Shown here: piece by piece, positions 7,375-51,922 of the stretch | Position numbering within the stretch: the first letter of the stretch is position 1 | Layout of the letters: every line of letters starts with the position of its first letter | Assembly (NCBI GenBank): GCA_030649895.1 | Contig: JAUSEX010000022.1 | Span: 1-54,682 of the forward strand | Length of the DNA: 54,682 bases | Source of the DNA: Candidatus Omnitrophota bacterium | GTDB lineage: Bacteria > Omnitrophota > Gorgyraeia > Gorgyraeales > Gorgyraeaceae | Reading direction: 5' to 3' | The notes under the pieces: model-generated | The model's database searches: none | Seen by the model: the letters and a program-made list of their open reading frames with translations, nothing else | Told to the model about the DNA's origin: nothing | Made by a program: the position numbers and the translations under genes

Positions 7375-7462
7375 TATGGTTTTAGAAAAACTCTATTACG
7401 CCGAAACCTCTCAAGTGCGCCTCAGGCTTCAGCTGGTTCAACAAAAGTATATTAAAATATAT

Positions 7463-10598: not shown

Positions 10599-11507
10599 AT
10601 GGAAAACACTGAAAATAAAAATATGATAGGTCTTGCCCTTGGTTCAGGAGCTGCCTTCGGGCTTGCGCACATAGGCGTATTAAAGATACTGGAAAGAGAA
10701 GAAATACCTATAGGCGTTGTTTCGGGCGCGAGTATAGGCGCGCTTATTGCTACGATGTGGGGCATCGGCCTCAGTTCTCACGAGATACAGAAGATTTCGG
10801 AGAGATTAAAAATAAAACTTAATATCCTCAGGCTTCTGGATTTTACATTTCCTATAACAGGGCTGCTTGCAGGCAAGAGGTTGAGAAGATTTTTAAGGGC
10901 CATACTTGGAGACAGCACGTTTGAAGATCTAAAGGTGCCGGTTAAGATAATAGTTTGCGACCTTGCGAATAGAGAAACAATAGTAATTGATAAGGGCATG
11001 CTTCTGGACGCTGTTTACAAGAGCATCGCTGTGCCTGGAATTTTTCAGCCTATAGTGGAAGACGGAAGGATACTTGTGGATGGAGGAATCATGGACCCTG
11101 TGCCGGTTGACATCCTTTTTAGAAGCGGCGCAAAAAAGATTATAGCGGTAAATGTTCTCCCCGGGCCAAAGAATATATACGAAAGAAACATGGCTTTAAA
11201 AGAAGCGGCAAAGGAAGAGGAGAATGTACTGAGACAGGGTTCTCTGGGCGAAAAAATAGGCGTTCATCTCCTGAGATTTTTTAGAAAGATGTTTACGCCT
11301 AATATATTCGACGTGATAATGACAAGCATGCAGGCAATGGAATATAGCATAGCGGAAATAAATTGTTGCAGAGCTGACGTAAATCTTCACCCTGTTTTAA
11401 GCAATGCGACTTCTATAGATTTTCATCTTGTGAAGCAGTTTGTGAAAATAGGGGAAGAAGAGGCCTTGAGGCATATAGATAAGATAAGGGCATTGAAGGC
11501 GGGATAA
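10599..11507 (+). CDS. patatin-like phospholipase
   Basis: GSGAAFG oxyanion loop, GASIGA (GxSxG) and a DGG motif. Start moved to ATG 10599, because the upstream part of the ORF covers the hairpin and T-run. Confidence 0.85.
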   Translation: MENTENKNMIGLALGSGAAFGLAHIGVLKILEREEIPIGVVSGASIGALIATMWGIGLSSHEIQKISERLKIKLNILRLLDFTFPITGLLAGKRLRRFLRAILGDSTFEDLKVPVKIIVCDLANRETIVIDKGMLLDAVYKSIAVPGIFQPIVEDGRILVDGGIMDPVPVDILFRSGAKKIIAVNVLPGPKNIYERNMALKEAAKEEENVLRQGSLGEKIGVHLLRFFRKMFTPNIFDVIMTSMQAMEYSIAEINCCRADVNLHPVLSNATSIDFHLVKQFVKIGEEEALRHIDKIRALKAG

Positions 11508-12668: not shown

Positions 12669-12790
12669 AGTTCTCGACTTGGCCTTTGGCCTCGCTCGAA
12701 CAACATGTCCTGAACTTGTCGAAGGATATTCTTCGAGCGAACGAGCCCCTCGACATTGCTCTGGGTAAACTTCGCGAGTGAGTCGAAAAG
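12669..12790. repeat. nested palindromic intergenic repeat, copy A
   Basis: AGTTCTCGAC ... CTCGCTCGAAC ... ATTCTTCGAGCGAACGAG ... AGTCGAAAAG. Begins 8 nt after the kinase stop codon. Confidence 0.7.
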
Positions 12791-16651: not shown

Positions 16652-18100
16652 ATGGTTGCTGTAAAAAAGAAGGTCTTATTAGCTGAGCACGAGGCTGGCA
16701 TTGCGGAGATAATACAGTATCTCCTCAAGGCGTGGGATTATGAAATAATTACTATCGCCAAAGGTTTCGCTGTTTTAGACGCAGTAAGACGGGAGCAGCC
16801 TGATATTATTATAATAGACTGGGGCTTGCCTGACATGGACGGCCTTAAGGTCTCCAAGGCCCTGAAAGAAGATTTTCTCACCGCGCATATCCCGATAATA
16901 GTCCTTATAGACAAAAAACAGATAAGAAAAAAGATGCTAGAGATAGAGCAGGGGGTGGACGACTATATTGCCAATCCCCCTGACCCCATAGACCTGGAAA
17001 TTCGCATGGAACTTGCCTTGCGCAGGACCAGCCACCAGCTTTACGCGAACGCCCTTACAAAGCTCCCGGGAAACAGGCAGATAGAGAAGGCAATATATTC
17101 CAGGATGGGCGAGAAAAAGCTTTTCTCGGTAGCCTATTATGACATAGATAATTTTAAATCGTTCAATGACAAATACGGCTATATGAAAGGCGATAGCGTC
17201 ATAAGGCATGTCGCTTATATTATATCCACTACAACCAAAAGATACGGCAATCCGCATGATTTTGTAGGCCATATAGGGGGCGATGATTTTGTGGTAGTTA
17301 CAACGCCTGATAAAGACAGGCTGATTGCGTCTGAGTCAATACTAGCCTTTAACAGGGCAATGCATTTTCATTATTCAAAAGAAGACAGGGAGAGGACCTA
17401 CATAGTTTCAAAAGACAGGCGCGGGAACGTGATGAATATGCCTCTTATGAGCGTCTCCATAGCCATAGCTAACAATAAATATTTTCCCATAAAAAATATG
17501 GTGGAATTGATGGAAACAATCACGGAGATAAAAAGTTATTTAAAGACATTGCCGGGCAGTAATTTTCTCGTGAACCGCAGGCAGATAGAGAAGAAACTAT
17601 TTATTGACGAACCGGTTAAAGCAGAATCTGCTGAAGCTAGCAAAGAAGAGAGGTTAAGGCATAAGCCGCTTGGTCAGATATTGCTGGAGTCTCAGGTGAT
17701 TACGCCTGAACAGCTTGAACTGGCGCTTAACAGGCACTGGAACACAGGCCAGAGAATAGGCCAGAGCGTTATAAGCCTTGGACTGGCAAGTTCCGGGGAT
17801 ATCGCAAGGGCTTTGGAATCGCAGTTCAATATCCCGCATTTTGATATCAGAAATTTGAGCGAAAACGGGGAACTGAAAGAGATAGTATCTAAAATATCTT
17901 TTGATATAATGAAAGATTACGGGGTTTTGCCTGTAAGAAAAGATAAAAACGTATTGCTTTTGGCAATGTTAGACCCTAAGAATATGGAAGCCCTGGCTAA
18001 AATAAAAAGCCTCACGGGTTGCAGCGTAACGCCTTTGTTTGTCCTGGAAAACGAATTTACCGAGATACTTGATAGGATAATCGTAAGATCAAAGGCATGA
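16652..18100 (+). CDS. response-regulator receiver + GGDEF-family domain (GGDDF) + MshEN/T2SS-E N-terminal c-di-GMP-binding-type domain
   Basis: DIIIIDWGLPDMDG receiver. DIDNFKSFNDKYGYMKGD ... HIGGDDFVV. The C-terminus carries two tandem MshEN-like motifs, PLGQILLESQVITPEQLELALNRH and RIGQSVISLGLASSGDIARALESQ. Confidence 0.85.
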   Translation: MVAVKKKVLLAEHEAGIAEIIQYLLKAWDYEIITIAKGFAVLDAVRREQPDIIIIDWGLPDMDGLKVSKALKEDFLTAHIPIIVLIDKKQIRKKMLEIEQGVDDYIANPPDPIDLEIRMELALRRTSHQLYANALTKLPGNRQIEKAIYSRMGEKKLFSVAYYDIDNFKSFNDKYGYMKGDSVIRHVAYIISTTTKRYGNPHDFVGHIGGDDFVVVTTPDKDRLIASESILAFNRAMHFHYSKEDRERTYIVSKDRRGNVMNMPLMSVSIAIANNKYFPIKNMVELMETITEIKSYLKTLPGSNFLVNRRQIEKKLFIDEPVKAESAEASKEERLRHKPLGQILLESQVITPEQLELALNRHWNTGQRIGQSVISLGLASSGDIARALESQFNIPHFDIRNLSENGELKEIVSKISFDIMKDYGVLPVRKDKNVLLLAMLDPKNMEALAKIKSLTGCSVTPLFVLENEFTEILDRIIVRSKA

Positions 18101-18104
18101 AAAA

Positions 18105-18274
18105 GGCCGATAAAGGCTTACAGCTTCAGCTTTTCATCGCTTGGCAACCCAGCCGCCATATTATTCCTAACTGCCTCACTAACCCTTTGCATTCGCTGGG
18201 GTTACGGCTTGTCAGAATAACTTAGGCCCGTAGGCTTTGCGCCCCCTGATTTCTCAGGGTTTGCCCTTATCGGC
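18105..18274. repeat. 170-bp element bounded by GGCCGATAAAGG / CCCTTATCGGC inverted repeats
   Basis: Terminal inverted repeats match 10 of 11. It starts 5 nt after the stop codon. It contains the hairpin CCCTGA-TTTC-TCAGGG (18244-18259). The end motif is the same as at 10513-10591. Confidence 0.5.
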
Positions 18275-18331
18275 TATAATAAGTATACCATATAAAAACG
18301 GTTTTTTCAAGACAAGGAGGAGGTAAGTAGA

Positions 18332-31842: not shown

Positions 31843-31908
31843 AAAATAGGGACAGCGACCTATTTTCTAGCTACATTAAGTAGAAAAATAGGTCGCTGTC
31901 CCTATTTT
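31843..31908 (+). terminator. very long hairpin after rpmE
   Basis: AAAATAGGGACAGCGACCTATTTTCTA pairs with TAGAAAAATAGGTCGCTGTCCCTATTTT: about 27 bp with a one-base bulge and an 11-nt loop. The A-run and T-run at the ends give it a bidirectional-terminator shape. Confidence 0.6.
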
Positions 31909-31928: not shown

Positions 31929-32999
31929 ATGTTAGAAAAATTAGATTCTTTGTTGAAGCGGTACGATGAGCTGCATGTGTTGATGGCGGACCCTGGCGTA
32001 GCAGGCAATCCTGACAGCTATCAGAAGCTGGCCAAAGAGATGTCGTCGCTTCAGGACATCGTGAAAAAATACAGGGCGTACCGAAAGGTCTTGGTCGAAC
32101 TGGAAGGCGCAAAACATCTTTTAGAAAAAGAATCTCACGAAGAACTGGTGGAAATGGCGAGAGGAGAAATCGCTGAGCTTGAAAAAAGAGAAGGCATACT
32201 TAAGGCTGAATTAGAGGAGATGATACTCGAAGAAGACCCTGACGCAAATAAAGATGTTATCGTGGAGATCAGGGCAGGGACAGGCGGGGCAGAGGCTTCG
32301 CTGTTCGCAGGCGATCTTTTTAGGATGTATTCCAAGTATGCCGCGAAAAATAACTGGAAAGTGGAGATAATGGACAGTCATGTTGCGGAAGCGGGCGGTT
32401 TTAAAGAAGTCATATTTGCGGTTAAAGGCAAGGGCGTTTATAAAAGATTAAAATATGAAAAAGGCGCTCACAGGGTTCAGCGGGTTCCCGCGACAGAGGC
32501 TTCCGGCAGGATTCATACCTCAGCTGTTACTGTGGCAGTTCTGGCTGAAGCAGAGGATGTGGAGGTTCAGATAACCCCGCAAGACATCAGATTGGATGTT
32601 TTCAGGGCGTCAGGCGCAGGAGGGCAGGGAGTCAATAAGATTGAATCAGCTGTGCGCATTACCCATATACCTTCAGGCATGGTAGTTACCTGTCAGGACG
32701 AAAGGTCGCAGAATAAAAATAAAGAAAAGGCTATGAGAGTATTGAGGGCAAGGCTTTTGGAATATATCAGAAAAAAGCATGACGATAAAATAGCAAAAGA
32801 CAGGCGCGCGCAGGTAGGTTCAGGAGACAGGAGCGAGAAAATCAGGACTTATAATTTTCCAGATCGCCGGGTTACGGATCACAGAATAGGCTTTACAATA
32901 CATGACCTGCCTAATGTAATGGAAGGCGATATGGATAAAATCATAGACGCGTTGATACAGGCAGAGAGGAAGATGAGACTAGGGAAACAAGGTTCATGA
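31929..32999 (+). CDS. prfA: peptide chain release factor 1
   Basis: PAT tripeptide (RVPATE) and GGQ motif (SGAGGQGVNK). Confidence 0.95.
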   Translation: MLEKLDSLLKRYDELHVLMADPGVAGNPDSYQKLAKEMSSLQDIVKKYRAYRKVLVELEGAKHLLEKESHEELVEMARGEIAELEKREGILKAELEEMILEEDPDANKDVIVEIRAGTGGAEASLFAGDLFRMYSKYAAKNNWKVEIMDSHVAEAGGFKEVIFAVKGKGVYKRLKYEKGAHRVQRVPATEASGRIHTSAVTVAVLAEAEDVEVQITPQDIRLDVFRASGAGGQGVNKIESAVRITHIPSGMVVTCQDERSQNKNKEKAMRVLRARLLEYIRKKHDDKIAKDRRAQVGSGDRSEKIRTYNFPDRRVTDHRIGFTIHDLPNVMEGDMDKIIDALIQAERKMRLGKQGS

Positions 33000-33919
33000 T
33001 AACAAAAATAGCCGGTTCAAAAAAAGATATTTTTTACTTGATGAATAAACATTCCAAGGCCATTGCCAAAGTGGAAGCGGAAATGCTATTGGAATATTTA
33101 TTTAACTGCACAAAGCTGGATTTATATATCAGAGATTTTGCCGTAGACGAAACAATAGAAGAATTGTATGATTCCCTGGTCAGCCGCAGGCTGAATAAAG
33201 AGCCTGTGCAGTATATGACAGGATGCGCAGAATTCATGGGGCTGGATTTTATAGTAACAAGGGATGTGTTAATTCCGCGTCCGGAGACGGAGATATTGGT
33301 TAATGAGATTATAAATAGTTCTCAATTCGGCTGCTTTCAGCAGCCTCATTCGAACGCTATAAAATATTCTTCGAGCGAGGCAACGAAGTTTCCGAATCGA
33401 GAAGTTAAGATATTGGATCTTTGTACGGGGTCCGGGAATATAGCTGTAAGTTTGGCCAGATTAATGCCGCAGGCTGAAATAGTTGCAACCGATATATCCG
33501 AAGGCGCCCTGAAGATAGCGAAAAAAAATGCAATCCGGAATCAAGCGGGCGACAGGGTAAAATTTTACAAAGGAAATCTTTTTAATGCTTTAGTGTTTGC
33601 GAAAAATCCGAAATTTGATATAATAGTCTGCAACCCGCCTTATATAAAGGAGGGTGATTTTCCTTTTTTGCAGAAGGAGGTCAGGGAAGAGCCTGAAATA
33701 GCCCTGAACGGCGGGAAAGACGGCCTTGATTTTTACAGGATTATAGCGAAAGATTCGCACAGGTTTCTGGAAAAAGGCGGAAAGATTTTATTGGAAATAG
33801 GCTTCGGCCAAAGAAAGGCTGTAGAAGATATATTTTTATCATATAGCATATTTGATGTATATAAGGTGATTAAGGATTTTTCAGGGACTGAAAGGGCGGT
33901 ATGGATAAATTTATTATAG
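32996..33919 (+). CDS. prmC: release-factor glutamine N5-methyltransferase PrmC/HemK, carrying an in-frame repeat insertion
   Basis: RPETE, DLCTGSG and NPPY motifs. ATGA overlap with prfA. Confidence 0.9.
   Translation: MITKIAGSKKDIFYLMNKHSKAIAKVEAEMLLEYLFNCTKLDLYIRDFAVDETIEELYDSLVSRRLNKEPVQYMTGCAEFMGLDFIVTRDVLIPRPETEILVNEIINSSQFGCFQQPHSNAIKYSSSEATKFPNREVKILDLCTGSGNIAVSLARLMPQAEIVATDISEGALKIAKKNAIRNQAGDRVKFYKGNLFNALVFAKNPKFDIIVCNPPYIKEGDFPFLQKEVREEPEIALNGGKDGLDFYRIIAKDSHRFLEKGGKILLEIGFGQRKAVEDIFLSYSIFDVYKVIKDFSGTERAVWINLL
33317..33406. repeat. nested palindromic repeat, copy E, inside the prmC reading frame
   Basis: AGTTCTCAAT ... CCTCATTCGAACGCTAT ... AATATTCTTCGAGCGAGG ... TCGAGAAGT. Same module order as intergenic copy D. 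Confidence 0.7.
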
Positions 33920-35166
33920 AAGGCGGAGTGAGATTAAAAGGCGCCGTGCAGATAAGCGGCGCAAAAAATGCAGCGCTTCCTATACTCGCAGCTACGCTTC
34001 TTACGGATGAAAAATGCGTTATAAAAAATATCCCGCCCTTGCAGGATGTGTACAATATGCTCAGGATACTCAGGAACATGGGTGTCAGGGCTGACATGGA
34101 GGATGAGGTAGTTATTATTCATCCAAATGGATACAGTAATTATGTTGCTCCTTATAAGCTTGTCAGTAAGATGAGGGCGTCTGTGTGCGTGCTGGGGCCT
34201 GTGCTTGGAAAACTAAAACACGCAGAGGTGTCAATGCCCGGAGGCTGCGTAATAGGCCCGAGGCCGATAGATTTGCACATAAAAGGCCTTAATGCGCTTG
34301 GCGCAAATATAAAAGTGGAACATGGATACCTGATCGCAGACGCGAAAAATCTTACGGGCGGCAGGGTTTATCTGGGTGGAAAGTTCGGATCAAGCGTTCT
34401 AGCTACTGCAAATGTTATGATGGCTGCGACCCTCGCAAAGGGGAAAACAGTTATTGAAAATGCGGCGTGCGAGCCAGAGGTTTGCGACTTGGCTGATTTT
34501 CTTGTTAAAATGGGGGCTAAGATAAAAGGTCAAAGGACTCCAATATTAGAGATAGAAGGCGTGAAGTCTCTTCATGGCGCGGAATATTCAATAATAAACG
34601 ACAGGATAGAGGCCGGTACTTTCATGATAGCCGCCGCGATTACTGGCGGAGACGTGTTGATAAAGGGCGCAAACATAGAACATCTCGGGGCTGTTATAGA
34701 TAAGCTAAAAGACGTAGGCGTGAGAATCACAAATACAAAAGACGGGCTCAGGGTTGTTAAGACAGGCTCCGTAAAACCGGTTGACGTTACCACGCTGCCT
34801 TATCCAGGATTTCCTACGGATATGCAGGCGCAGATGACAGCGCTCATGTGCATAACCAAAGGTATCAGCGTAATAACAGAAAAAATATATCCGGAAAGAT
34901 TTATGCATATAAGCGAACTCGCCAGGATGGGCGCGCATATAATACTGGAAGGCTCTAGCGCAATAGTAAAAGGCGTTTCAAGGCTTAGCGCAGCCCCTGT
35001 AATGGCTTCTGATTTAAGGGCAAGCGCGGGGCTGGTGCTGGCTGGGCTTGTAGCGAAAGGCAAGACAGAGATATCAAGGATATACCACCTTGACAGGGGA
35101 TATCATCACATAGAGGAAAAATTAGAAAAGTTAGGCGTAAGGATAAAAAGAGAGAAAGAAGATTAG
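33901..35166 (+). CDS. murA: UDP-N-acetylglucosamine 1-carboxyvinyltransferase
   Basis: ISGAKNAALP and catalytic-Cys loop PGGCVIGPRPIDLH. Confidence 0.95.
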   Translation: MDKFIIEGGVRLKGAVQISGAKNAALPILAATLLTDEKCVIKNIPPLQDVYNMLRILRNMGVRADMEDEVVIIHPNGYSNYVAPYKLVSKMRASVCVLGPVLGKLKHAEVSMPGGCVIGPRPIDLHIKGLNALGANIKVEHGYLIADAKNLTGGRVYLGGKFGSSVLATANVMMAATLAKGKTVIENAACEPEVCDLADFLVKMGAKIKGQRTPILEIEGVKSLHGAEYSIINDRIEAGTFMIAAAITGGDVLIKGANIEHLGAVIDKLKDVGVRITNTKDGLRVVKTGSVKPVDVTTLPYPGFPTDMQAQMTALMCITKGISVITEKIYPERFMHISELARMGAHIILEGSSAIVKGVSRLSAAPVMASDLRASAGLVLAGLVAKGKTEISRIYHLDRGYHHIEEKLEKLGVRIKREKED

Positions 35167-35181
35167 TCGCATAACAAAAAC

Positions 35182-35255
35182 AATATTCTTCGAGCGAACC
35201 TGCGAAGCAGCTGAGCCGAGAAGTTCTCGACCCGCTTTATTCGCTCGAACAATAG
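35182..35255. repeat. nested palindromic repeat, copy B (permuted module order)
   Basis: AATATTCTTCGAGCGAAC ... GAGCCGAGAAGTTCTCGAC ... ATTCGCTCGAACAATAG. Confidence 0.7.
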
Positions 35256-35276
35256 TTGCTTACATGGAGGTAATTA

Positions 35277-35519
35277 ATGGCTGTTAGGATAAGATTGAAA
35301 AGATTTGGGACAAAGAAAAAACCGCACTGCAGGATCGTTGTCTGCGACATAAGGCGCGCGAGAGACGGAAAGACCTTGGAAGAATTAGGCTATTATGACC
35401 CGTCTAAAAAACCGACCTTTATAAGCATAGACAAGGAAAGGGCGAAATTCTGGCTGTCAAAAGGCGCTACGCCTACAGAAATAATAAAAAGTCTTTTCAA
35501 AAAACAAGGCGTAATTTAG
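35277..35519 (+). CDS. rpsP: 30S ribosomal protein S16
   Basis: MAVRIRLKRFGTKKKPHCRIVV.. Confidence 0.95.
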   Translation: MAVRIRLKRFGTKKKPHCRIVVCDIRRARDGKTLEELGYYDPSKKPTFISIDKERAKFWLSKGATPTEIIKSLFKKQGVI

Positions 35520-35523
35520 TAAC

Positions 35524-35548
35524 CTATCCGGCTCACGGAGCCGGATAG
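35524..35548 (+). other. perfect 11-bp stem-loop between rpsP and trmD
   Basis: CTATCCGGCTC-ACG-GAGCCGGATAG, with no T-run after it. Confidence 0.6.
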
Positions 35549-35572
35549 CGAACCGCATAGGTTAAAGTGGTT

Positions 35573-36262
35573 ATGCTGATAGATGTCCTGACGATATTCC
35601 CAAAGATGTTTGATGCGGTCATGGGAGAGTCTATTATAAAGCGGGCTCAGGAAAAGAAAGTTGTTGAAATAAACATAATAGACCTGAGGTTGTTTTCAAA
35701 AGACAAGCATCGAAAGGTGGACGATAAGCCTTTTGGCGGCGGACCTGGCATGGTAATGAACGCCGAGCCATTTTTCGAAGCGGTTAGTTACATACGAAGA
35801 AAAACAAAGGATCGCCGGCTAAAAACAAGGACAATACTCCTTAGCCCGAAGGGTAAAAAGTTTAGCCAGGCCCTTGCTGTAAAATTATCAAAATACGAAC
35901 ACATGGTGTTATTGTGCGGCCATTACGAAGGTATAGACAATAGGGTGGCTGAGCACCTTGCGGACGATGAAATATCAATAGGGGATTTCATATTGACCGG
36001 CGGGGAATTACCGGCAATGGCGATAATTGACAGCGTTGTAAGGCTCGTGCCCGGAGTGCTCGGAGACGAGAATTCCTGCAAAGATGAATCTTTTTCAGGA
36101 AATCTTTTGGAGTATCCGCATTACACAAGGCCCGCTGATTATAGCGGCATGAAGGTTCCTGACGTGCTTTTATCAGGGAATCACGGGAAAATAGAAGAAT
36201 GGAGAAGAAAGGAAGCGATAAAAGCAACAAAAAAGAAAAGGCCTGATTTGTTGAAACATTAA
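35573..36262 (+). CDS. trmD: tRNA (guanine37-N1)-methyltransferase
   Basis: MLIDVLTIFPKMF.. and LLCGHYEGIDNRV. Start at ATG 35573. Confidence 0.95.
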   Translation: MLIDVLTIFPKMFDAVMGESIIKRAQEKKVVEINIIDLRLFSKDKHRKVDDKPFGGGPGMVMNAEPFFEAVSYIRRKTKDRRLKTRTILLSPKGKKFSQALAVKLSKYEHMVLLCGHYEGIDNRVAEHLADDEISIGDFILTGGELPAMAIIDSVVRLVPGVLGDENSCKDESFSGNLLEYPHYTRPADYSGMKVPDVLLSGNHGKIEEWRRKEAIKATKKKRPDLLKH

Positions 36263-36264
36263 AT

Positions 36265-36360
36265 AGTTCTCGACTCACGAAGTTTACCCCAAGCGAAGTC
36301 GAGAGGCTCACTCGAACGCTATTATTTTTCAGGGCGTGGCCGAAGAGCCGAGTCGAGAAA
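36265..36360. repeat. nested palindromic repeat, copy C
   Basis: AGTTCTCGAC sits 3 nt after the trmD stop, followed by ... GTCGAGAGGCTCACTCGAACGCTATT ... GAGCCGAGTCGAGAA. Confidence 0.7.
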
Positions 36361-36374
36361 TTAAAGGAGGAATA

Positions 36375-36767
36375 ATGGATATTATCGGAGAATTGGAAAA
36401 AGATTTTATGAAAAAAGATGTAACTAATTTTAAAGTAGGGGATACCGTCAAGGTGGCAGTCAAGATAAAAGAAGGCGATAAGATAAGGAATCAGGCCTTT
36501 GAAGGGATTGTGATCGCCAGAAAAGGTTCGGGCGTAAAAGAGACCTTTACGGTAAGGCACATATCTTTCGGGGAAGGCGTAGAGAGGGTGTTTTTTGTTC
36601 ATTCTCCGCAAATAGACTCGATAAAGGTCATTAAAAAAGGCAAGGTTAACAGGGCAAGGCTTTATTATCTGAGGAAAAGAGTTGGCAAAAGCACATCGGT
36701 CGAAGAAGAAAGAGAAATTGCAAAACCCCAGGCAAATGCTGGCGTGGGAGAAAAAGGCGTTTCTTGA
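36375..36767 (+). CDS. rplS: 50S ribosomal protein L19
   Basis: FKVGDTVKV..KEGDKIRNQAFEGIVIARKG. ATG 36375 follows AAGGAGG. The GTG 36336 in the track would read through the repeat. Confidence 0.9.
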   Translation: MDIIGELEKDFMKKDVTNFKVGDTVKVAVKIKEGDKIRNQAFEGIVIARKGSGVKETFTVRHISFGEGVERVFFVHSPQIDSIKVIKKGKVNRARLYYLRKRVGKSTSVEEEREIAKPQANAGVGEKGVS

Positions 36768-37416
36768 CGGGGCTTCTGTCGTAATAGGCGTTGACGAGGC
36801 GGGCAGAGGGCCTCTCGCAGGCCCTGTTGTGGCAGGCGCCGTGATCCTCAAAGACCTTAAATACAAATCCAGGATAGATGATTCAAAAAAGCTGAGCCCT
36901 GCGCAGAGAGAGATGGCGTTCAGAGAGATATCGAAGAAAGCGGTTTTCGGCATAGGCGTCAAAGATAATAAATACATAGATAGAGAAAATATACACGTGG
37001 CAACGCTTGCAGCAATGAAGCAGGCGGTTAAAAAGCTGGTATCCAAATTTTGCCGCTTGTCTGATAAAAAAGAAAAAAATATCAGAAAAAATATCTGCGT
37101 TCTTGTGGATGGCGTATTTGGCGGGTTTCTCCCTTATAAAACAATCCCGATTGTAAAAGGCGACTCTAAAAGCTTTTCTATAGCAGCTGCGTCAATAGTG
37201 GCAAAGGTAACGCGTGACGCGATCATGAATGAGTATGATAAAAAATACCCTCTTTATAGTTTCTCAAAACACAAAGGATATGGCACAAGATTGCACCTGC
37301 AGGCTATTGAGCAATACGGGCCATGCTCGATACACAGAAAAAGTTTCGCACCTATTAAAATAACCGACCTTCGTCCCAGGGGCGGAGGTGATAATAATGA
37401 CATTCGCAAGGATTAA
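36736..37416 (+). CDS. rnhB: ribonuclease HII
   Basis: IGVDEAGRGPLAGPVV and DSKKLS motifs. Start set at ATG 36736. Confidence 0.9.
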   Translation: MLAWEKKAFLDGASVVIGVDEAGRGPLAGPVVAGAVILKDLKYKSRIDDSKKLSPAQREMAFREISKKAVFGIGVKDNKYIDRENIHVATLAAMKQAVKKLVSKFCRLSDKKEKNIRKNICVLVDGVFGGFLPYKTIPIVKGDSKSFSIAAASIVAKVTRDAIMNEYDKKYPLYSFSKHKGYGTRLHLQAIEQYGPCSIHRKSFAPIKITDLRPRGGGDNNDIRKD

Positions 37417-37777
37417 CTCGGGAAGAAAAGGGGAAGAGCAGGCTATAGCTTGCTTGCGCAAAAACGGCTATAAAATAATAGAAAAGAATTACAGGACAAA
37501 ACTCGGGGAAATAGATATAATAGCTGATGACAAGGGCGTTATTTCTTTTGTGGAGGTACGGTCTAAAAATAGCCCCGGATTTGGCCTGCCTGAAGAAACC
37601 ATAAATAAAAAGAAAAAAGCGCAAATTTCAAAGATAGCCCTGGCGTATATAAAGCAATGCAATTTAATGGATAAAAGCTGCAGGTTTGACGTAGTTTGCA
37701 TTCAGGGCGTTGACAGTCCAGAGCCAGAAATAAAATTGATTAAGGATGCGTTTGAGCTGGATGATAAGTGGAGGTAA
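37388..37777 (+). CDS. YraN-family (UPF0102) endonuclease-like protein
   Basis: GRKGEEQAIACLRKNGYKIIEKNYRTKLGEIDIIA. Confidence 0.85.
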   Translation: MIIMTFARINSGRKGEEQAIACLRKNGYKIIEKNYRTKLGEIDIIADDKGVISFVEVRSKNSPGFGLPEETINKKKKAQISKIALAYIKQCNLMDKSCRFDVVCIQGVDSPEPEIKLIKDAFELDDKWR

Positions 37778-39489
37778 AATTGAAAAGCGTCCCAAGCGAT
37801 CTTGAGATAGCCCAGGCTGCAAAACTGAAACCTATTATTGAGATTGCAAAAAACTTAGGCATAAGAGAAAACGAATTGGAGTTATACGGAAAGTATAAAG
37901 CCAAGATCTCGCTTTCCATACTCGATCGCCTTAAAAATAAACCCTTTGGAAAATACATAGATGTAACAGCTATTACGCCAACGCCTTTAGGAGAAGGAAA
38001 AACAGTTACGACTATAGGTTTGAGCTTAGGGCTGGCAAAACTCAGAAAAAAAGTTATAACAACGCTCAGGCAGCCATCGATGGGGCCTGTATTTGGCATA
38101 AAAGGCGGAGCTGCGGGAGGCGGTTATTCCCAGGTATTGCCGATGGAAGATATTAATCTTCATTTTACGGGCGATATACATGCGGTAGGCGCGGCAAATA
38201 ATCTTTTAGCCGCATTTATAGACAACAGCATTGTAAAGGGCAATAAACTGAACATAGATCCAGATACCATTATTACGCGCAGGGTAGTGGATATAAGCGA
38301 TAGGGCCTTGCGGCATATAAAAACCGGGCTGGGCGGAGAGGACAACGGAATCCCGAGAGATACAGGTTTTGACATAACAGTTGCGAGCGAAGTTATGGCA
38401 ATACTCGCGCTTTCAAACAGCCTCCTTGATTTAAGACAGCGCATAGGAAAGATGATAGCAGCTTTTACTTATGATGGGAAACCCGTCACATCGGAGAATC
38501 TGAAATGCGCAGGCGCCATGACGGTCCTTTTAAAAGACGCTATTAAGCCTAACCTTATTCAGACCACAGAGAACACCCCGTGCATTATGCACGCAGGGCC
38601 TTTTGCAAATATCGCGCACGGCAACAATTCAATATTGGCGGATATGATAGCTTTAAGATCGGCGGATTACGTGGTTACTGAGAGCGGTTTTGGGGCAGAC
38701 TGCGGGCTAGAAAAATTTATGGATATAAAATGCCGGATACCGGGACTTAAGCCGCCCGATAGCGTGGTTATCGTTTGCAGCGTGAGGGCGCTAAAGATGC
38801 ATGGTGGCGCATTTAAGGCAGCGCCTGGCAAAAAGATAGACGAAGAGGCCTTAAGAAGAGAAGACGTGGAGGCTGTTAAAAGAGGCGCCAGCAACCTTGA
38901 AAAGCATATTGAGAATATAAAATTATTCGGCGTGCCTGTAGTAGTCGCGATAAACAGGTTTTTATACGATACGGATAAAGAAATTGCCGTGATAAAAGAA
39001 ATAGCTGTGAAAGCAGGCGCAGAGGACGCTGTTTTAAGCGAGGTATGGGAAAAAGGCGGCGAAGGCGGCGTAGATTTAGCTAAAGCCGTAATAAAGGCGT
39101 GCGAGAAAAAATCAAACTTCAAGTACCTGTATCCTCTGGATCTGCCGATCAAAGAAAAGATAGAGCTGATAGCAAAAAATATTTATGGCGCGAAAGACGT
39201 AAGCTATGCGGCGGAAGCTGAAAGAAAGATAGAGTTTTACGCAAAATTAGGCTATGATAAATTACCAATATGCATGGCAAAGACCCATCTATCGCTCTCG
39301 CATGATCCGGAGCTAAAGGCCAGGCCAAGGGATTTTACTTTACCTGTAAGGGATATAAGGATTTCAGCAGGCGCCGGGTTTTTATATCCATTATGCGGAG
39401 ATATGCGCACGATGCCGGGCCTGCCGTCAGTACCAGCCGGCACTAAAGTGGATATTGATAAAAATGGAAGAGTGGTAGGGTTATTTTGA
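37768..39489 (+). CDS. fhs: formate--tetrahydrofolate ligase
   Basis: SDLEIAQ.., P-loop TPTPLGEGKTVTT, and GFGADCGLEKF. Confidence 0.95.
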   Translation: MEVKLKSVPSDLEIAQAAKLKPIIEIAKNLGIRENELELYGKYKAKISLSILDRLKNKPFGKYIDVTAITPTPLGEGKTVTTIGLSLGLAKLRKKVITTLRQPSMGPVFGIKGGAAGGGYSQVLPMEDINLHFTGDIHAVGAANNLLAAFIDNSIVKGNKLNIDPDTIITRRVVDISDRALRHIKTGLGGEDNGIPRDTGFDITVASEVMAILALSNSLLDLRQRIGKMIAAFTYDGKPVTSENLKCAGAMTVLLKDAIKPNLIQTTENTPCIMHAGPFANIAHGNNSILADMIALRSADYVVTESGFGADCGLEKFMDIKCRIPGLKPPDSVVIVCSVRALKMHGGAFKAAPGKKIDEEALRREDVEAVKRGASNLEKHIENIKLFGVPVVVAINRFLYDTDKEIAVIKEIAVKAGAEDAVLSEVWEKGGEGGVDLAKAVIKACEKKSNFKYLYPLDLPIKEKIELIAKNIYGAKDVSYAAEAERKIEFYAKLGYDKLPICMAKTHLSLSHDPELKARPRDFTLPVRDIRISAGAGFLYPLCGDMRTMPGLPSVPAGTKVDIDKNGRVVGLF

Positions 39490-39510
39490 ATCGCGCGACT
39501 ACGCGAAAGC

Positions 39511-39622
39511 AGTTCTCGACTAGGCTTATATGTATAGCCGCAGTGTCCGCTCGAACGATATTGCGATAATATTCTTCGAACGATCATTAGAGTATTATTG
39601 TGCGAGCAGAGAGTCGAGAAGC
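39511..39622. repeat. nested palindromic repeat, copy D (most complete)
   Basis: AGTTCTCGAC ... CCGCTCGAACGATATT-GCGAT-AATATTCTTCGAACGATC ... GAGTCGAGAAGC. Confidence 0.75.
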
Positions 39623-39647
39623 AAAAGACAGAAGTTTGTAGAATTAT

Positions 39648-40247
39648 ATGTACATCAATAAACCTTTAAAAGTATATATAGATGATCTTGCCGCAAAACA
39701 GCCTACGCCGGGCGGCGGAAGCGCAGCTGGCTTGGCAGGAGCGTTAGGCGCAGCGTTGCTGGAGATGGTTTGCAACTTCACCATCGGTAATAAAAAGTAT
39801 AAAGACATAGAAGACGCCGTAAGCGGTTATTTTCTGGTAATTAAAAAAATAAGAGAGGATTTCCTTGTTTTAGTAGACGAGGATACGGAGGTGTATTCTT
39901 CCATATGCGCTGCATTTAAAACAAAAGATGAAAAAATCATTGATAAAGCGCTGAAAGACGGATATTATGTTTCTTTAAAAATGTGCGAGACGGCGAAATC
40001 TGGCATGAAAGTCTCGTCAGGTCTGGCTGAGAAATCGAATGTCAATCTGATAACAGATGTGGGATGCGGTTCAGAGCTTTTAAAGGCCAGTTTTAATTCA
40101 GGCGTATTTAACGCGGAGATAAATCTTAAGGGAATAAAGGACGCGCCTTTCGTGGAAAAGGAAAGACTGGTTTTAAGCGCCCTCGAAAAAGATACGATCG
40201 AGCTGTACGAAAAGGCGATTTCTAAAACAAAAGAAAGGATGTTGTAA
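39648..40247 (+). CDS. fchA: methenyl-THF cyclohydrolase / formimino-THF cyclodeaminase family protein
   Basis: FTCD_C-type N-terminus LAAKQPTPGGGSAAGLAGALGAALLEMV. Confidence 0.85.
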   Translation: MYINKPLKVYIDDLAAKQPTPGGGSAAGLAGALGAALLEMVCNFTIGNKKYKDIEDAVSGYFLVIKKIREDFLVLVDEDTEVYSSICAAFKTKDEKIIDKALKDGYYVSLKMCETAKSGMKVSSGLAEKSNVNLITDVGCGSELLKASFNSGVFNAEINLKGIKDAPFVEKERLVLSALEKDTIELYEKAISKTKERML

Positions 40248-40249
40248 TT

Positions 40250-41110
40250 ATGCCCGCTAAATTACTGGAAGGCAAGAGCGTTGCCTTGAAGATAAAGGAA
40301 AACATAAGAGCGGAAATAGAAACTTTAAAAAGTAAATACGGATTCGGGCCTAAGCTTGTCAGCGTACAGGTTGGAGAGAATTCCGCTTCGGAGATATATA
40401 TCAAGTCCCAGGAGAAAACAGCCAGGGACCTGGGAATAGACTATGAACTTAAAAAAATAGCGGCTGATATCAAGCAAGACGAACTTATAAAGGCAATAGA
40501 ACTGCTGAACAAAGGTAAATCAGTAAACGGGATTATAATCCAGATGCCGTTGCCTCAGCACATAGACGCAAAACTTATTTCCAGGTATATATCTCCCTTA
40601 AAAGACATAGAGGCGGTTCATCCCCAGAACATGGGCGAGATTATTTTTGGAACAGCTAAAGTTTTACCGTGCACGGCAGCCGCGTGCATGGAGCTTTTGA
40701 ATTCAGTGCCTGAGCTTGAGCTATACGGTAAAGAAGCTGTCGTGGTGGGCCACAGTGAAATCGTAGGGAAGCCATTGGCTCTATTGTTATTGAATAAATT
40801 CGTAACTACCACGGTCTGCCATATAGCTACGGGCAAAAGAGGAACGCTTCCAGAATTTGTAAAAAAGGCTGAGATTTTGATAGTAGCCGTAGGAAAGGCA
40901 GGCCTTGTAAAAGGCGATTGGATAAAAGAAGGCGCTATAGTGATTGATGTCGGGATTAACCGGGTGGAAGGCAAGATAGTTGGAGACGTGGAATTTGACA
41001 GGGCAGCTGAAAAGGCGTCTTATATTACGCCTGTCCCGGGCGGGGTAGGGCCTTTAACAGTAACAATCTTAATGCGGAATGTAGTCGAAGCGTTTAAACA
41101 GCAGGCGTAA
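40250..41110 (+). CDS. folD: bifunctional methylene-THF dehydrogenase / methenyl-THF cyclohydrolase
   Basis: QVGENSASEIYIKSQ, IIIQMPLP and VVVGHSEIVGKP. Confidence 0.95.
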   Translation: MPAKLLEGKSVALKIKENIRAEIETLKSKYGFGPKLVSVQVGENSASEIYIKSQEKTARDLGIDYELKKIAADIKQDELIKAIELLNKGKSVNGIIIQMPLPQHIDAKLISRYISPLKDIEAVHPQNMGEIIFGTAKVLPCTAAACMELLNSVPELELYGKEAVVVGHSEIVGKPLALLLLNKFVTTTVCHIATGKRGTLPEFVKKAEILIVAVGKAGLVKGDWIKEGAIVIDVGINRVEGKIVGDVEFDRAAEKASYITPVPGGVGPLTVTILMRNVVEAFKQQA

Positions 41111-48615: not shown

Positions 48616-48662
48616 ACTAGGCCCAGTTCTCCGAACGGGATAAGGTAACAAAGGAGCTTTTA

Positions 48663-50002: not shown

Positions 50003-50056
50003 AAAATCCACCTACGGGGTGAGCCAATTAATTGGCTCACCCCGTAGGTGGATTTT
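50003..50056. terminator. perfect 54-bp palindrome (27-bp arms, no spacer), probable bidirectional terminator
   Basis: AAAATCCACCTACGGGGTGAGCCAATT | AATTGGCTCACCCCGTAGGTGGATTTT. Starts 3 nt after the acsC stop. Confidence 0.65.
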
Positions 50057-50619: not shown

Positions 50620-51922
50620 TTTCCATAAAGTAGTTATTGTCGGAAGGCCTAATGTCGGTAAGTCTACGCTTTTTAACAGGATTCTGCAAAGACGCAAGGC
50701 CATAGTGGAAGAATTCGGACCCACTACCCGCGACAGAATCGGCGCTATTGTTAAATGGTCCGGCAAGACTTTCGAGCTGATAGATACCCCGGGCCTTAAT
50801 TTTGAAAAAAAAGAAAACCTCTCAATGCTTATAGAAAAACAAATAATGCTTGGCATAAAAGAGGCTGATCAGCTTATTTTTGTATGCGACGCTATTTCCG
50901 GGATCTTACAAATGGACTATAAGATATGCGAGATGCTTAGAAAAGCGGATAAAAACGTTATATTAGCCGTAAACAAGGTGGACAGTAGAAATTTAATGCA
51001 AAAGATGTCAAATTTTTATAGCTTGGGTTTTGGCGAACCAATGACCATATCCAGCTTGCATGGGTTAGGAATAGGGGACCTTTTAGATAAAGTCGTGACT
51101 AATATTGTTCGAGTGAGCGCCGACACCAAAAGTGCTGGTGCGAGTCGAGAACCTATAAAACTCGCTATTATCGGTAAACCAAACGTAGGAAAATCTTCTT
51201 TTGTTAACGGCATTCTAGATGAAGAAAGAATTACAGTTAGCGATATCCCTGGCACCACAAGAGACTCGATAGACACGTATTTTGAAAAAGATAAAAAATC
51301 TTTTACTATAATTGATACGGCGGGCATACGTTCGAAGGCTAAAATAAAAGACGCTGTCACGTATTTCAGCATATTGCGCACGGAAGAAACCATTAAAAGA
51401 AGCGACGTGGCAGTAATCCTAATAGACGCGCCGCTAGGCATAACAAAAGAAGAACACAGGATAATAGACATTGTGCAGAAAAATTTTAAACCGTTTATCT
51501 TGGCGATAAATAAATGGGACCTGGCGGAGAAAGAGGGCATAAAAAAAAGCGGGTACGAAAAAGTAATCCGCGAAAATATAAGATTTATGTATAACGCGCC
51601 TATTGTTTTTATGTCTGCGTTAAAAAAGTCAAATCTCGTAGAAGTAGTTGACAAGGCTTACGAACTGGCAGAAAAATCCAGAAAGAATTTTTCAACAAGC
51701 GACCTGAACAGCATTCTTAAGGCTGTGGATTTCAATCCAACAAAGCTTTACTCTATAAGACAAATGAGAAATTCTCCGCCTGATTTTGAGATCATCGTAA
51801 AGAACCCTGAAGACATAAAAAGCACGGAAAAAAGCCACCTGGTAAATATTTTCCGTAAAAAATTACGGTTAGAAGGAATTCCGGTCATTATAAAATTCAG
51901 AAAAAAAGAATTTAAGCTTTAA
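50600..51922 (+). CDS. der: ribosome-biogenesis GTPase Der (EngA)
   Basis: Two GTPase domains (GRPNVGKST, GKPNVGKSS) plus a KH-like C-terminus. Confidence 0.95.
   Translation: MKPTKYNFHKVVIVGRPNVGKSTLFNRILQRRKAIVEEFGPTTRDRIGAIVKWSGKTFELIDTPGLNFEKKENLSMLIEKQIMLGIKEADQLIFVCDAISGILQMDYKICEMLRKADKNVILAVNKVDSRNLMQKMSNFYSLGFGEPMTISSLHGLGIGDLLDKVVTNIVRVSADTKSAGASREPIKLAIIGKPNVGKSSFVNGILDEERITVSDIPGTTRDSIDTYFEKDKKSFTIIDTAGIRSKAKIKDAVTYFSILRTEETIKRSDVAVILIDAPLGITKEEHRIIDIVQKNFKPFILAINKWDLAEKEGIKKSGYEKVIRENIRFMYNAPIVFMSALKKSNLVEVVDKAYELAEKSRKNFSTSDLNSILKAVDFNPTKLYSIRQMRNSPPDFEIIVKNPEDIKSTEKSHLVNIFRKKLRLEGIPVIIKFRKKEFKL
51101..51153. repeat. half copy (F) of the nested palindromic repeat, inside the der inter-domain linker
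   Basis: AATATTGTTCGAGTGAGC ... GAGTCGAGAACC. Translated as NIVRVSADTKSAGASREP. Confidence 0.55.

Follow-up and report, generated by a model that had tools for sequence, protein, structure and literature searches.

What is the long nested palindrome that fills the spacer between fhs and fchA, and why do related sequences recur at other gene junctions along the same DNA? The window, by which we mean the entire 54.7-kb contig analysed here, comes from a Candidatus Omnitrophota groundwater MAG. A first-pass annotation had proposed a dispersed repeat family with at least six copies in it, built from two short modules, M1 and M2, and their reverse complements. Both modules are strongly overrepresented: M1 (AGTTCTCGAC, with at most one mismatch) has 6 matches in the window where 1.44 are expected, M2 (CGCTCGAACRATATT, with at most two mismatches) has 9 where 0.27 are expected, and in neither case did any of 100 shuffles reach the observed count. 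A hidden Markov model (HMM) of the half unit, M1-hairpin-M2, detects 11 half units with E-values from 1e-8 to 2e-4, and nothing else in the window scores below E = 8. A covariance model (CM) of the full element, run over the window with filters off, matches exactly 12670-12790, 33318-33404, 36266-36360 and 39512-39621, each scoring higher on the + strand. Every copy also folds better than its own shuffles (z from -2.2 to -3.4). The modules thus hold up statistically, the shuffle tests and the HMM and CM E-values excluding chance, and all six copies lie where they had been placed. Four are full elements, one is a pair of halves in permuted order and one is a lone half unit; they are listed here with the parts of the fhs-fchA copy.

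39511..39622, + strand: full element of the long subfamily, fhs-fchA spacer (CM 73.7 bits, E = 1.5e-14)
39512..39521, + strand: M1, left terminal arm, sequence GTTCTCGACT, pairing with M1'
39522..39547, + strand: left variable module, of the recurrent type GGCTTAyAtGtATAGCC..ATGTC
39548..39556, + strand: M2, inner left arm, CGCTCGAA + C
39557..39574, + strand: central loop with AATATT, plus an extra 11-nt linker
39575..39582, + strand: M2', inner right arm, TTCGAACG (consensus TTCGAGCG)
39583..39611, + strand: right variable module, of the recurrent type GGTCAyGAgAgCATATCAyGnGAGCAG
39612..39621, + strand: M1', right terminal arm, AGTCGAGAAG, with terminal G, not C
33317..33406, + strand: full element inside prmC, in frame (CM 58.2 bits)
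12669..12790, + strand: full element, spacer between the genes for a hybrid histidine kinase and a hexapeptide transferase (CM 38.7 bits)
35182..35225, + strand: right half (M2'..M1') of the permuted pair, murA-rpsP spacer (HMM E = 9.6e-9, a - strand match)
35222..35256, + strand: left half (M1..M2) of the permuted pair (HMM E = 2.2e-4)
36265..36361, + strand: full element, trmD-rplS spacer (CM 35.5 bits, with HMM halves)
51101..51153, - strand: half unit, reversed, within der/engA (HMM E = 8.9e-7)

The family consensus runs from GTTCTCGACT through a variable hairpin to CGCTCGAAC-AATATT-CTTCGAGCG, and from there through another variable hairpin to AGTCGAGAAG. The outer inverted repeat, formed by the two ends, and the inner one, centred on AATATT, are conserved; the two variable slots and the variable loop hold interchangeable small hairpin modules, identical examples of which are found in either slot, in the loop, or by themselves. 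These mini-hairpins often carry GAA(G)/UUCG-type loops. Full elements measure 72-137 nt and have no ORF capacity, and the central loop ranges from CAATATTC to about 50 nt. TCGA flanked by C/G occurs in every conserved module (TTCTCGAC, GCTCGAAC, TTCGAGCG, GTCGAGAA) and likewise in the optional modules CCTTCGAC and CCCTCGAC. The fhs-fchA copy folds at -37.7 kcal/mol (z = -3.3); its left module type is also present at loci L002, L023, L030, L054, L058, L075, L111 and others, and its right module type recurs together with the long left one. The copy at 12669-12790, whose halves match the HMM at E = 4.8e-7 and 6.8e-5, has the loop module ACATGTCCTGAACTTGTCGAAGGATAT and a long right module, CCCTCGAC..GGGTAAACTTCGCG. 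At 36265-36361, M2' is degenerate and the element ends directly at the rplS Shine-Dalgarno sequence, while the permuted halves at 35182-35256 share a 4-nt overlap. Two proposed remnants, at 7217 and 48625, are 7-13-nt matches and are left unsupported because neither the HMM nor the CM detects them; AGTTCTCCGAACG at 48625, a very short sequence, could be a collapsed M1/M2 footprint.

Further copies are numerous and occur in many genomes. They were collected in two independent scans, one of a genome contig collection and one of a metagenome contig collection. The former gave at least 113 loci, most labelled Omnitrophota and several per MAG, with at least 209 half units in 756 kb; the latter, made with an independent 25-base left-half pattern, gave at least 120 loci and at least 282 half units. 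Many Omnitrophota MAGs contain frequent copies, and the family is also present in CPR/Patescibacteria MAGs, where some of the cross-phylum assignments could be binning errors, since all of these genomes are MAGs. About 40 pattern loci outside Omnitrophota (Ensifer, Kribbella, Acidobacteriota and others) are not matched by the CM and are ascribed to the approximately 67 chance matches estimated beforehand for the scan pattern. No element copy was found in a viral contig collection, whose two matches are chance hits in GC-rich coding DNA and lack M1.

The copies resemble one another most closely at their ends. Among the matches listed, 51 copies have terminal inverted repeats (TTCTCGACT / AGTCGAGAA) that are 98.7% paired, and columns 1-10, which make up M1, are invariant or almost so. 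A stem covariation test on these 51 copies showed almost no covariation; with arms so close to invariant in sequence, it carries no information. The ends follow a strand asymmetry, G...G with a terminal G rather than C, in 106 of the 110 full copies among the matches listed (53 of 55 in each scan), which we count as support for a family of single origin. Half units are mostly paired as inverted doublets: neighbouring units among the matches listed in the two scans are arranged left-to-right in 60 and 71 cases, right-to-left in 16 and 27, and directly in 5 and 2. Sub-units also form tandem arrays (L026, 1-290; L001, 4690-4800).

Searches for a known family were negative. Rfam 15 at gathering score reports only two c-di-GMP-I riboswitches, elsewhere in the window, and the fhs-fchA copy at E <= 10 draws only chance miRNA and snoRNA matches. 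We found no description of the family in the literature, and this nested-hairpin repeat family is apparently undescribed. A Rho-independent terminator was rejected, there being no U-tract, and no terminator-like site coincides with any element in 32900-40300. Integron attC sites are imperfect palindromes that lie after the stop of a promoterless cassette, carry R''/R' core sites (RYYYAAC / GTTRRRY) and are arrayed beside intI. That identity was also rejected: the neighbours here are syntenic housekeeping genes (prfA-prmC-murA-rpsP-trmD-rplS...fhs) whose order is kept in L115, and the element's ends, GTTCTCG / CGAGAAG, do not match GTTRRRY. A CRISPR reading was rejected as well.

The element is mostly oriented with transcription and sits where one gene stops and the next starts in tightly packed operons. 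Of the copies between co-directional genes among the matches listed, 41 point with the genes and 12 against them (p = 8e-5), and the element ends 7-17 nt before the next start; the orientation bias could reflect a function at the RNA level. Placement just after stop codons, as originally described, is borne out as a statistical tendency, the stop codon touching or overlapping the first base of the element in 15 of the 41 co-oriented intergenic cases among the matches listed. The distance of 3-22 nt given for three left ends in the window needs slight adjustment, to 7 nt (kinase gene), 2 nt (trmD) and 21 nt (fhs); the fhs-fchA copy ends 26 nt before the fchA start. Flanks are A/T-rich, the right one A-rich, and among the matches listed TA abuts the left end in 35 of 106 copies and the right end in 21 of 106, against a background of 7%. 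No clean target-site duplication was found in these 106 copies: TA on both flanks does not exceed the marginal prediction, identical 2-nt flanks number 11 against 6.7 expected from marginal frequencies, and identical 3-5-nt flanks occur once or not at all.

The family is multicopy, occurs in many genomes, and is present or absent between close relatives. A contig about 96% identical to the window joins 39469 to 39662, leaving the fhs-fchA site empty and the two genes overlapping as TAATG, and a contig of 88% identity lacks the copy in the murA-rpsP spacer. In L115 the fhs-fchA site is filled by a short element of 70 nt, and the r-protein spacers there hold a different repeat family at the same positions. 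At both the fhs-fchA site and the prmC codon site described below, internal modules and lengths differ between lineages. Filled sites depart from empty ones by more than the element alone, which leaves its exact ends undefined: the fhs-fchA spacer is 158 nt for an element of 112 nt, and the filled prmC site replaces 8-11 linker codons of the empty one.

Two of the window's copies lie inside genes, a correction to the first-pass annotation. The copy at 33317-33406 is in frame within prmC (32996-33919), where it contributes 30 extra codons, residues ~108-137, encoding the peptide SSQFGCFQQPHSNAIKYSSSEATKFPNREV. Codon-level comparison finds this site filled in the window, L115 and L116, and empty in L114 and L117. 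The insert is predicted to be a disordered loop (it is unstructured, with pLDDT < 50, in the AF2 model), and by protein alignment it evolves faster than the rest of PrmC. Between orthologous prmC copies, the core modules are 89-93% identical, compared with 41-68% for flanking third codon positions, which could mean functional constraint instead of selfish spread. The half copy at 51101-51153 falls within der/engA and encodes part of the linker between the two GTPase domains of Der (NIVRVSADTKSAGASREP). This linker is common to relatives at 85-88% identity and unrelated in other Omnitrophota; in P0157 it is longer, and element-derived.

Similar cases recur across the collections. Coding copies occur in PrmC, Der, YfhO (two copies), a radical-SAM/DUF6873 protein and Mur ligases, including a genuine Levybacteria MurF; PrmC, Der, YfhO and the Mur ligases are verified hosts, and the Der and radical-SAM copies are placed in inter-domain linkers. 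The peptide frames SSRL..LEQYSSS..SRE and VLDS..RSNNI recur. In-frame copies appear to occupy permissive loops or linkers and to be translated as extra peptide. Among the matches listed, 17 of 139 clusters lie deep within long ORFs, and full elements fall within gene proxies, a set that includes some spurious ORFs, in 16 of 53 and 11 of 53 cases in the two scans; we place the share of copies that are in-frame parts of real genes, among the matches listed, at about 10-20%. Stop codons are depleted in the element, which has 2.57 open frames of 6, compared with 1.25 for shuffles and 1.91 for random genomic windows.

A cognate transposase, suggested earlier as a possible partner, did not come to light in the genome fragments searched. 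ORFs from 113, and then 239, element-bearing loci were clustered, and those that were recurrent or flanked by elements were searched with Pfam. In some 1.5 Mb of element-bearing genome fragments, the ORFs beside or between elements turned up neither a transposase, REP-associated (RAYT) or otherwise, nor a parent autonomous insertion sequence with matching terminal repeats. Recurrent neighbours are housekeeping genes, pilins and one repeat-flanked, non-transposase family without a Pfam match, which by its N-terminus looks like an AbiEi-type regulator.

How should this family be explained? Chance similarity, low complexity or an assembly artefact might be suspected where contigs come from short-read metagenomes and repeats cause graph joins, but that account is effectively refuted by the shuffles and the HMM and CM E-values, by the reading frame that intragenic copies keep, and by the occurrence of the family across hundreds of assemblies made independently in different studies, one of them the single-cell genome SAG AM-312-B13. 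A host cis-acting RNA element, putatively a REP-like 3' stabiliser of the upstream cistron, a site of RNase III/E processing or a regulator of translational coupling, selected in operons and spread through its usefulness, would fit the 41:12 orientation with transcription among the matches listed, the position directly past stops and 7-17 nt before the next start, the stable folds with their frequent GAA(G)/UUCG-type loops, and core modules conserved far above synonymous sites. It would also fit L115, whose r-protein spacers carry another repeat family as if a structured spacer were needed. We nevertheless consider it unlikely: near relatives do without the element, their stop and start codons overlapping; a 3'-end stabiliser makes no sense for the 10-20% of copies in frame within ORFs; 12 of 53 intergenic copies among the matches listed are oppositely oriented; the stems, invariant in sequence, show almost no covariation; and there is no U-tract. 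Conservation of sequence rather than pairing, the TCGA in every conserved module and the tandem sub-unit arrays (L026, L001) would fit a DNA-level array of binding sites for a host protein (a nucleoid-associated protein, gyrase/IHF as at BIMEs, or a TCGA methyltransferase/restriction system) in which the TCGA modules are the functional units. Such an array seems very improbable, however, as no candidate protein was identified, strand asymmetry and a transcription-oriented bias are unexpected for a symmetric double-stranded site, and presence/absence polymorphism and cross-phylum spread fit a mobile element better.

The family is probably a non-autonomous, modular, nested-palindromic mobile repeat of about 70-135 nt, MITE/REPIN-like in kind, found in Omnitrophota and CPR/Patescibacteria and behaving like the Rickettsia palindromic elements. 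A trans-acting enzyme encoded outside the window, candidates being a single-strand HUH/RAYT-type enzyme or a TA-targeting DDE transposase, would copy the element into A/T-rich, often TA, sites. It would persist only where no gene is broken, which would account both for the copies that abut stop codons and for the stop-free core. Gene conversion or nested insertion may then homogenise copies and swap internal modules. Co-transcribed with its neighbours, the element would fold into a stable branched hairpin, with possible secondary effects on the decay or processing of the mRNA or on coupling to the gene downstream. We entertain more tentatively a bolder version, in which one modular 'protein-coding palindrome' family of about 100 nt extends across far-separated phyla of ultra-small groundwater organisms, namely Omnitrophota, several CPR/Patescibacteria classes and possibly DPANN, is kept homogeneous by ongoing transfer or gene conversion, and remodels essential proteins (loops, linkers, possibly gene fusions) and operon junctions with no transposase nearby. 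That version implies a mobilisation system acting in trans, or a vector, shared among co-occurring, possibly host-dependent cells.

Several known systems share parts of this behaviour. The first-pass comparison with REP/BIME or MITE elements stands as far as a dispersed family of inverted doublets with an unrecognised sequence is concerned, but not as a purely extragenic one. As in the REPINs of E. coli and Pseudomonas, half units of about 35-55 nt combine, mostly as inverted doublets, into a long hairpin, and as in BIMEs, linkers are variable and combinations mosaic. Clusters and tandem arrays, a position between co-directional genes just past stops, and the apparent lack of a clean target-site duplication are common to REP, BIME and REPIN elements and this family. 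In contrast to REPs, the half unit here consists of two conserved boxes around a variable hairpin and is no simple palindrome, the GTAG-type 5' tetranucleotide is absent, and no RAYT gene was found nearby in the genome fragments searched. With Correia elements (CREE, Neisseria) and other MITEs (ERIC/IRU, RUP, BOX, Nezha, Chunjie) the family shares size, terminal inverted repeats, a copy number in the hundreds (by extrapolation), strain variation in the presence or absence of copies and, putatively, co-transcription with neighbours as RNA hairpins. As expected of MITEs, the elements are multicopy and lie in the size range of about 50-500 bp, have no transposase gene of their own, and have filled and empty sites. 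Correia elements target TA, and the flanks here are TA-enriched; a TA duplication, however, is not demonstrable, the ~1.5 Mb of genome fragments yielded no parent insertion sequence whose terminal repeats match, and nested modular slots and a cross-phylum distribution are unusual for MITEs.

REPs are extragenic by definition, which the 10-20% of in-frame copies contradict, so that the Rickettsia palindromic elements are the better functional analogue. These elements, RPE-1 to RPE-10 (Ogata et al. 2000, 2002, as summarised in PMC10969869), are described in that summary as palindromic, roughly 100-150 nt long and present in many copies, with a substantial share in frame in unrelated housekeeping genes and read through as peptide, and with no associated transposase known as far as its account goes. 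Their insertions lie at positions compatible with the fold, to which the predicted PrmC loop and the Der and radical-SAM linkers correspond here. The likeness is one of behaviour; we claim no membership. According to the same summary their hosts are Rickettsia, a single genus, whereas the present family spans several phyla, Omnitrophota and CPR being unrelated to that genus. Its elements are also shorter and, through nested hairpin slots and the exchange of modules, strongly modular, and most of them are intergenic, at stop/start junctions and orientation-biased.

If Omnitrophota and CPR carry another such family, unrelated to that of Rickettsia, then 'selfish DNA inside proteins' would be a recurring feature of bacteria with small genomes and a possibly host-dependent life, and many of the insertions and differences in length that have gone unexplained in the housekeeping proteins of these bacteria would be easier to account for. 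To our knowledge, in-frame palindromic repeats have so far been regarded as a Rickettsia peculiarity. The family has a bearing on gene calling and orthology, on protein-length statistics and on MAG binning. As a non-autonomous element crossing phyla it would be a sensitive tracer of groundwater gene flow, and it offers a ready covariance-model target for genome-wide mobile-element dynamics in uncultivated lineages. Separately, contig-graph joins were seen at the repeats, as in contig paths running from 39563 to 33363, and the family fragments short-read assemblies.

The M1/M2 repeats, hairpins with the layout M1 - variable module - M2 - AATATT loop - M2' - variable module - M1', are a genuine family and apparently an undescribed one; full-text literature searches for such a family in Omnitrophota or Patescibacteria turned up no description. 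The source organism is a groundwater Candidatus Omnitrophota, and the window, an entire contig of 54,682 bp, has a GC content of about 42%, a GC skew that is positive along its entire length, and long ORFs with Pfam support on the + strand. Both modules claimed in the first-pass annotation are strongly over-represented in it: M1 (AGTTCTCGAC, at most one mismatch) has 6 matches against 1.44 expected, and M2 (CGCTCGAACRATATT, at most two mismatches) has 9 against 0.27. A half-unit profile (M1 - variable segment - M2), made from the copies in that annotation, detected 11 half units with E-values from 1e-8 to 2e-4, and no further match below E = 8. A covariance model built from 51 full elements drawn from many genomes, run on the window with all filters off, found exactly four full elements, each scoring 17-28 bits higher on the + strand than on the - strand. 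The copies are:

39512-39621, + strand, full element, 73.7 bits
33318-33404, + strand, full element, 58.2 bits
12670-12790, + strand, full element, 38.7 bits
36266-36360, + strand, full element, 35.5 bits
35182-35256, permuted form, right half adjoining left half
51101-51153, - strand, lone half unit

Every window copy folds better than its own shuffles (z from -2.2 to -3.4). The gene identities (hybrid histidine kinase, PrmC, MurA, S16, TrmD, L19, Fhs, cyclodeaminase domain protein, and Der) were upheld. Remnants proposed at 7217 and 48625 are detected by neither the half-unit HMM nor the covariance model. The sequence at 48625-48637, AGTTCTCCGAACG, lies 10 nt past the acsB stop and resembles M1 joined to M2 via their common CTCGA core; this very short sequence could be what an excision or deletion left behind.

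The consensus of the 51 aligned full elements is GTTCTCGACT - variable module - YCGCTCGAAC - AATATT - CTTCGAGCG - variable module - AGTCGAGAAG, with a linker of 0-45 nt accompanying the AATATT. Pairing holds in 98.7% of cells in the outer arms and in more than 90% in the inner-arm core. Because the stem arms are almost invariant, covariation is uninformative, only one stem pair varying freely (UA 16, CG 15, UG 12). The palindrome is imperfect, its symmetry broken by the end bases (G...G) and by the bases adjacent to AATATT (C...C). Full copies retain this orientation mark in 53/55 and 53/55 cases (genome and metagenome sets, among the matches listed), which points to a single-origin family of defined polarity. 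Most of the variable modules are GC-rich mini-hairpins with perfect stems and no sequence relationship to one another, and the others belong to a few recurrent longer modules; those on the left have a mean folding z of -2.2. A given module can occupy the left slot, the right slot, or the loop, or can stand alone elsewhere, as GCCCGCCACAGAAACAATGGCGGGC does. Half-unit pairs among the matches listed run left-then-right in 60 + 71 cases and right-then-left, as at 35182, in 16 + 27. Sub-units also form tandem arrays, at 1-290 of locus L026 (the left half repeated directly five times in 50-nt units, then one right half) and at 4690-4800 of L001, a contig labelled Doudnabacteria (repeated GAGTCGAGAAGTCGCAGATTTCGAGCC units).

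Scans for further copies, as the first-pass annotation had proposed, found many outside the window. A pattern of M2' plus six M1' bases only, applied to one representative genome per species with about 67 chance matches estimated beforehand, returned at least 113 loci. Most of the matches listed carry the label Candidatus Omnitrophota, many of the metagenome-assembled genomes (MAGs) contributing several loci each, and one locus is from a single-cell genome. The half-unit profile found at least 209 half units in the 756 kb of these loci. An independent scan of metagenome contigs, with a 25-base pattern from the left half only and well below one chance match estimated, returned at least 120 loci and at least 282 half units. 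About 40 of the other genome-scan loci have no covariance-model match, and we set them aside as the expected chance matches. Full elements by the covariance model occur in loci labelled Doudnabacteria (L001), Saccharibacteria (L064, L077), and Patescibacteria group (L006), and in MAGs labelled "Gammaproteobacteria" and "Pseudomonadota" (L017, L053); half units were detected in Levybacteria (L013, L045) and in one MAG each of Nanoarchaeia (L039) and Syntrophorhabdaceae (L089). The distribution appears to cross phyla. The Levybacteria case is based on a gene whose closest homologues are CPR proteins; the other assignments come from MAG labels, among which there could be binning errors. In groundwater, Omnitrophota and Patescibacteria have been reported to exchange genes (PMC12455944).

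Full elements between co-directional genes, among the matches listed, are co-oriented with transcription in 23 + 18 cases and opposed in 7 + 5 (41 vs 12, p = 8e-5). The placement just past stop codons noted earlier recurs across the family: in 15/41 co-oriented cases the upstream stop codon directly adjoins the element or consists of TA plus the element's first G. The right end is typically 7-17 nt from the next start codon, and TA is enriched immediately outside both ends. Duplicated flanks, as would mark a target-site duplication, are no commoner than chance, and no U-tract or terminator-like signature was found at the elements. Two copies in the window are not intergenic, a point that the first-pass annotation missed: 33317-33406 is inside prmC, and 51101-51153 is inside der.

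The prmC copy, 90 nt long, keeps the reading frame and makes up 30 codons, and the encoded PrmC has 307 aa, where 283 aa is typical in Omnitrophota. Relatives of 310-348 aa have insertions at the identical place with the peptide signature NSSR..HSN..YSSS..SREV, which is translated M1, M2, M2', and M1'. The element lies at the identical codon position in three genomes, those of the window, L115 (MNVP01000026, Omnitrophica CG1_02_40_15), and L116, with junction codons ATT ATx AAY / AGT TCT CGA ... CGA GAA GTT / AAG ATA TTR GAY, lengths of 30, 42-43, and 40 codons, respectively, and differing internal modules; in L115, 129 nt separate the flanking N and K codons. In L114 and L117 a short, unrelated linker takes its place. 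An AlphaFold2 model predicts residues 112-134 to be an unstructured loop (pLDDT <50) that follows helix 96-107 and precedes the first strand of the methyltransferase fold, and the insert is the fastest-evolving PrmC region among close relatives (P0001-P0003). A second PrmC insertion hot spot (alignment columns ~235-266; L115 9510-9585), NALVFD-[~25 aa]-KNPKFD, is seen in eight relatives. In L115 it holds the mini-hairpin GCCCGCCACAGAAACAATGGCGGGC; its occurrence both alone and within elements suggests independent insertion of mini-hairpins.

The family regularly includes coding copies. In Der, the half unit at 51101-51153 supplies NIVRVS...SREP within the linker that joins the two GTPase domains. 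Relatives at 85-88% identity have it too, and the linkers of other Omnitrophota are unrelated; one such Der protein, P0157, has a longer element-derived linker, ...FSTSSKNIRLSRE.... Among the matches listed, 17/139 element clusters are buried by more than 150 nt in long ORFs that Pfam identifies as real proteins: YfhO (two copies), Mur ligases, and a radical-SAM/DUF6873 protein whose domains flank the element. One element-bearing MurF, whose closest homologues are Levybacteria, Parcubacteria, and Patescibacteria proteins, has 572 aa vs the usual 450-470 aa. Two reading frames recur, SSRL..LEQYSSS..SRE and VLDS..RSNNI, and stop codons are depleted within the elements: 2.57 of six frames are open, vs 1.25 in shuffles and 1.91 in random windows of the same loci.

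Other insertions were seen in these proteins. The 572-aa MurF (P0241, Levybacteria; L013 927-2645) exceeds its homologues by ~100 aa through three insertions, one containing element halves; the other two, VIARSEVSPRADEATRQSH and RDPNGISP...RRNDK, look like other short repeat families in translation, and homologues P0242, P0244, and P0253 carry other inserts at the same hot spot. Further insertions, lineage-specific and not related to the M1/M2 family, occur in Omnitrophota Der proteins (alignment columns ~118-130 and ~262-278): PVGGGRGRPLQ (P0134, P0165), FAGDRHARPLQ (P0157, P0159), and NPVRESQSKSADFSNGV (P0127).

Occupancy differs between relatives, which speaks for mobility. In a groundwater-run contig ~96% identical to the window, 33 nt connect 39469 to 39662, with the fhs stop and fchA start overlapping as TAATG; the entire 158-nt fhs-fchA spacer, including the element, is missing. 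The murA-rpsP element is missing from an 88%-identical contig, and 12 kb of L114 has no copy. L115, a relative syntenic with the window, has a short 70-nt element with different modules at its fhs-fchA junction, and its murA-rpsP and trmD-rplS spacers hold a different, 172-nt repeat family and no M1/M2 copy. The three 172-nt copies (7270-7441, 11265-11436, 12481-12652) each lie directly 5' of an r-protein gene (rpmE, rpsP, rplS) and end at the Shine-Dalgarno sequence; two of the three spacers are those with an M1/M2 element in the window. A third L115 family consists of 68-nt palindromes (TTAGCGTAGAGCGGATAGCG...; 7660-7727 and 11684-11765). A ~99%-identical strain (sequencing run X2) has a 25-nt insertion, CTCCGTGAGTCGCCGAAGCTGGCGA, itself a mini-hairpin, behind window position 35531, in the loop of a hairpin (CTATCCGGCTCACGGAGCCGGATAG, 35524-35548) past the rpsP stop, making the strains polymorphic for a nested hairpin indel.

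The element is a polar, multicopy, polymorphic nested palindrome that occurs at operon junctions and in permissive protein loops and swaps its internal modules. We infer a non-autonomous, MITE/REPIN-type mobile element, which an enzyme encoded elsewhere would copy, with selection retaining only insertions that spare genes, at junctions by stop codons or as in-frame, stop-free copies in loops. The orientation bias, the GAA-type loops of the hairpin modules, and the absence of duplication would fit a single-strand, HUH/RAYT-like mechanism slightly better; the alternative, which would fit the TA-rich flanks, is a DDE transposase that targets TA, as with Correia elements. A search for the cognate transposase suggested earlier found no RAYT or parent insertion sequence in ~1.5 Mb of element-bearing DNA. 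A further process is needed for the orthologous prmC copies, whose core modules are 89-93% identical, vs 41-68% at third positions of the flanking highly conserved codons. Possible causes are recurrent insertion into a hot spot, gene conversion between copies (this would account for module swapping as well), and selection on the nucleotide sequence. The last of these would agree with an RNA-level role (stabilising the upstream cistron, processing, or coupling), an explanation that we keep alive beside that of a mobile element.

The earlier REP/BIME- or MITE-like reading holds in part. The element is built like the doublets of REP/BIME/REPIN systems and shares some features with Correia-type MITEs, but, unlike REPs, is not strictly extragenic. 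In behaviour it is closest to the Rickettsia palindromic elements, in-frame insertions in housekeeping genes at positions compatible with the fold (PMC10969869). Because of its intragenic copies, the lack of a RAYT or parent insertion sequence in the DNA searched, and the lack of a demonstrable duplication, we assign it to none of these three groups. Its interest is raised by in-frame colonisation of essential genes outside Rickettsia, by the nested modular architecture, and by the apparent cross-phylum distribution.

Elsewhere in the window are three hairpins unrelated to the M1/M2 family, probably terminators or hairpins of another kind: a spacerless, perfect 27-nt palindrome at 50003-50056, past an ORF that ends at 50000; perfect inverted repeats of 24 nt at 31843-31908, separated by a loop of 18 nt; and a 23-nt inverted repeat at 7328-7374. 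Two c-di-GMP-I riboswitch aptamers (Rfam RF01051) were found, at 1581-1668 (+, 77.9 bits), 5' of ORF 1725-2096, and at 18140-18275 (-, 64.7 bits), upstream of the neighbour of ORF 16652-18100. Within ORF 2418-4985 (855 aa), positions 3462-4897 encode diverged ~87-aa repeats with a WDFGDG motif, spaced mostly by 261 nt or near-multiples (276, 522 nt), which look like PKD-like domains.
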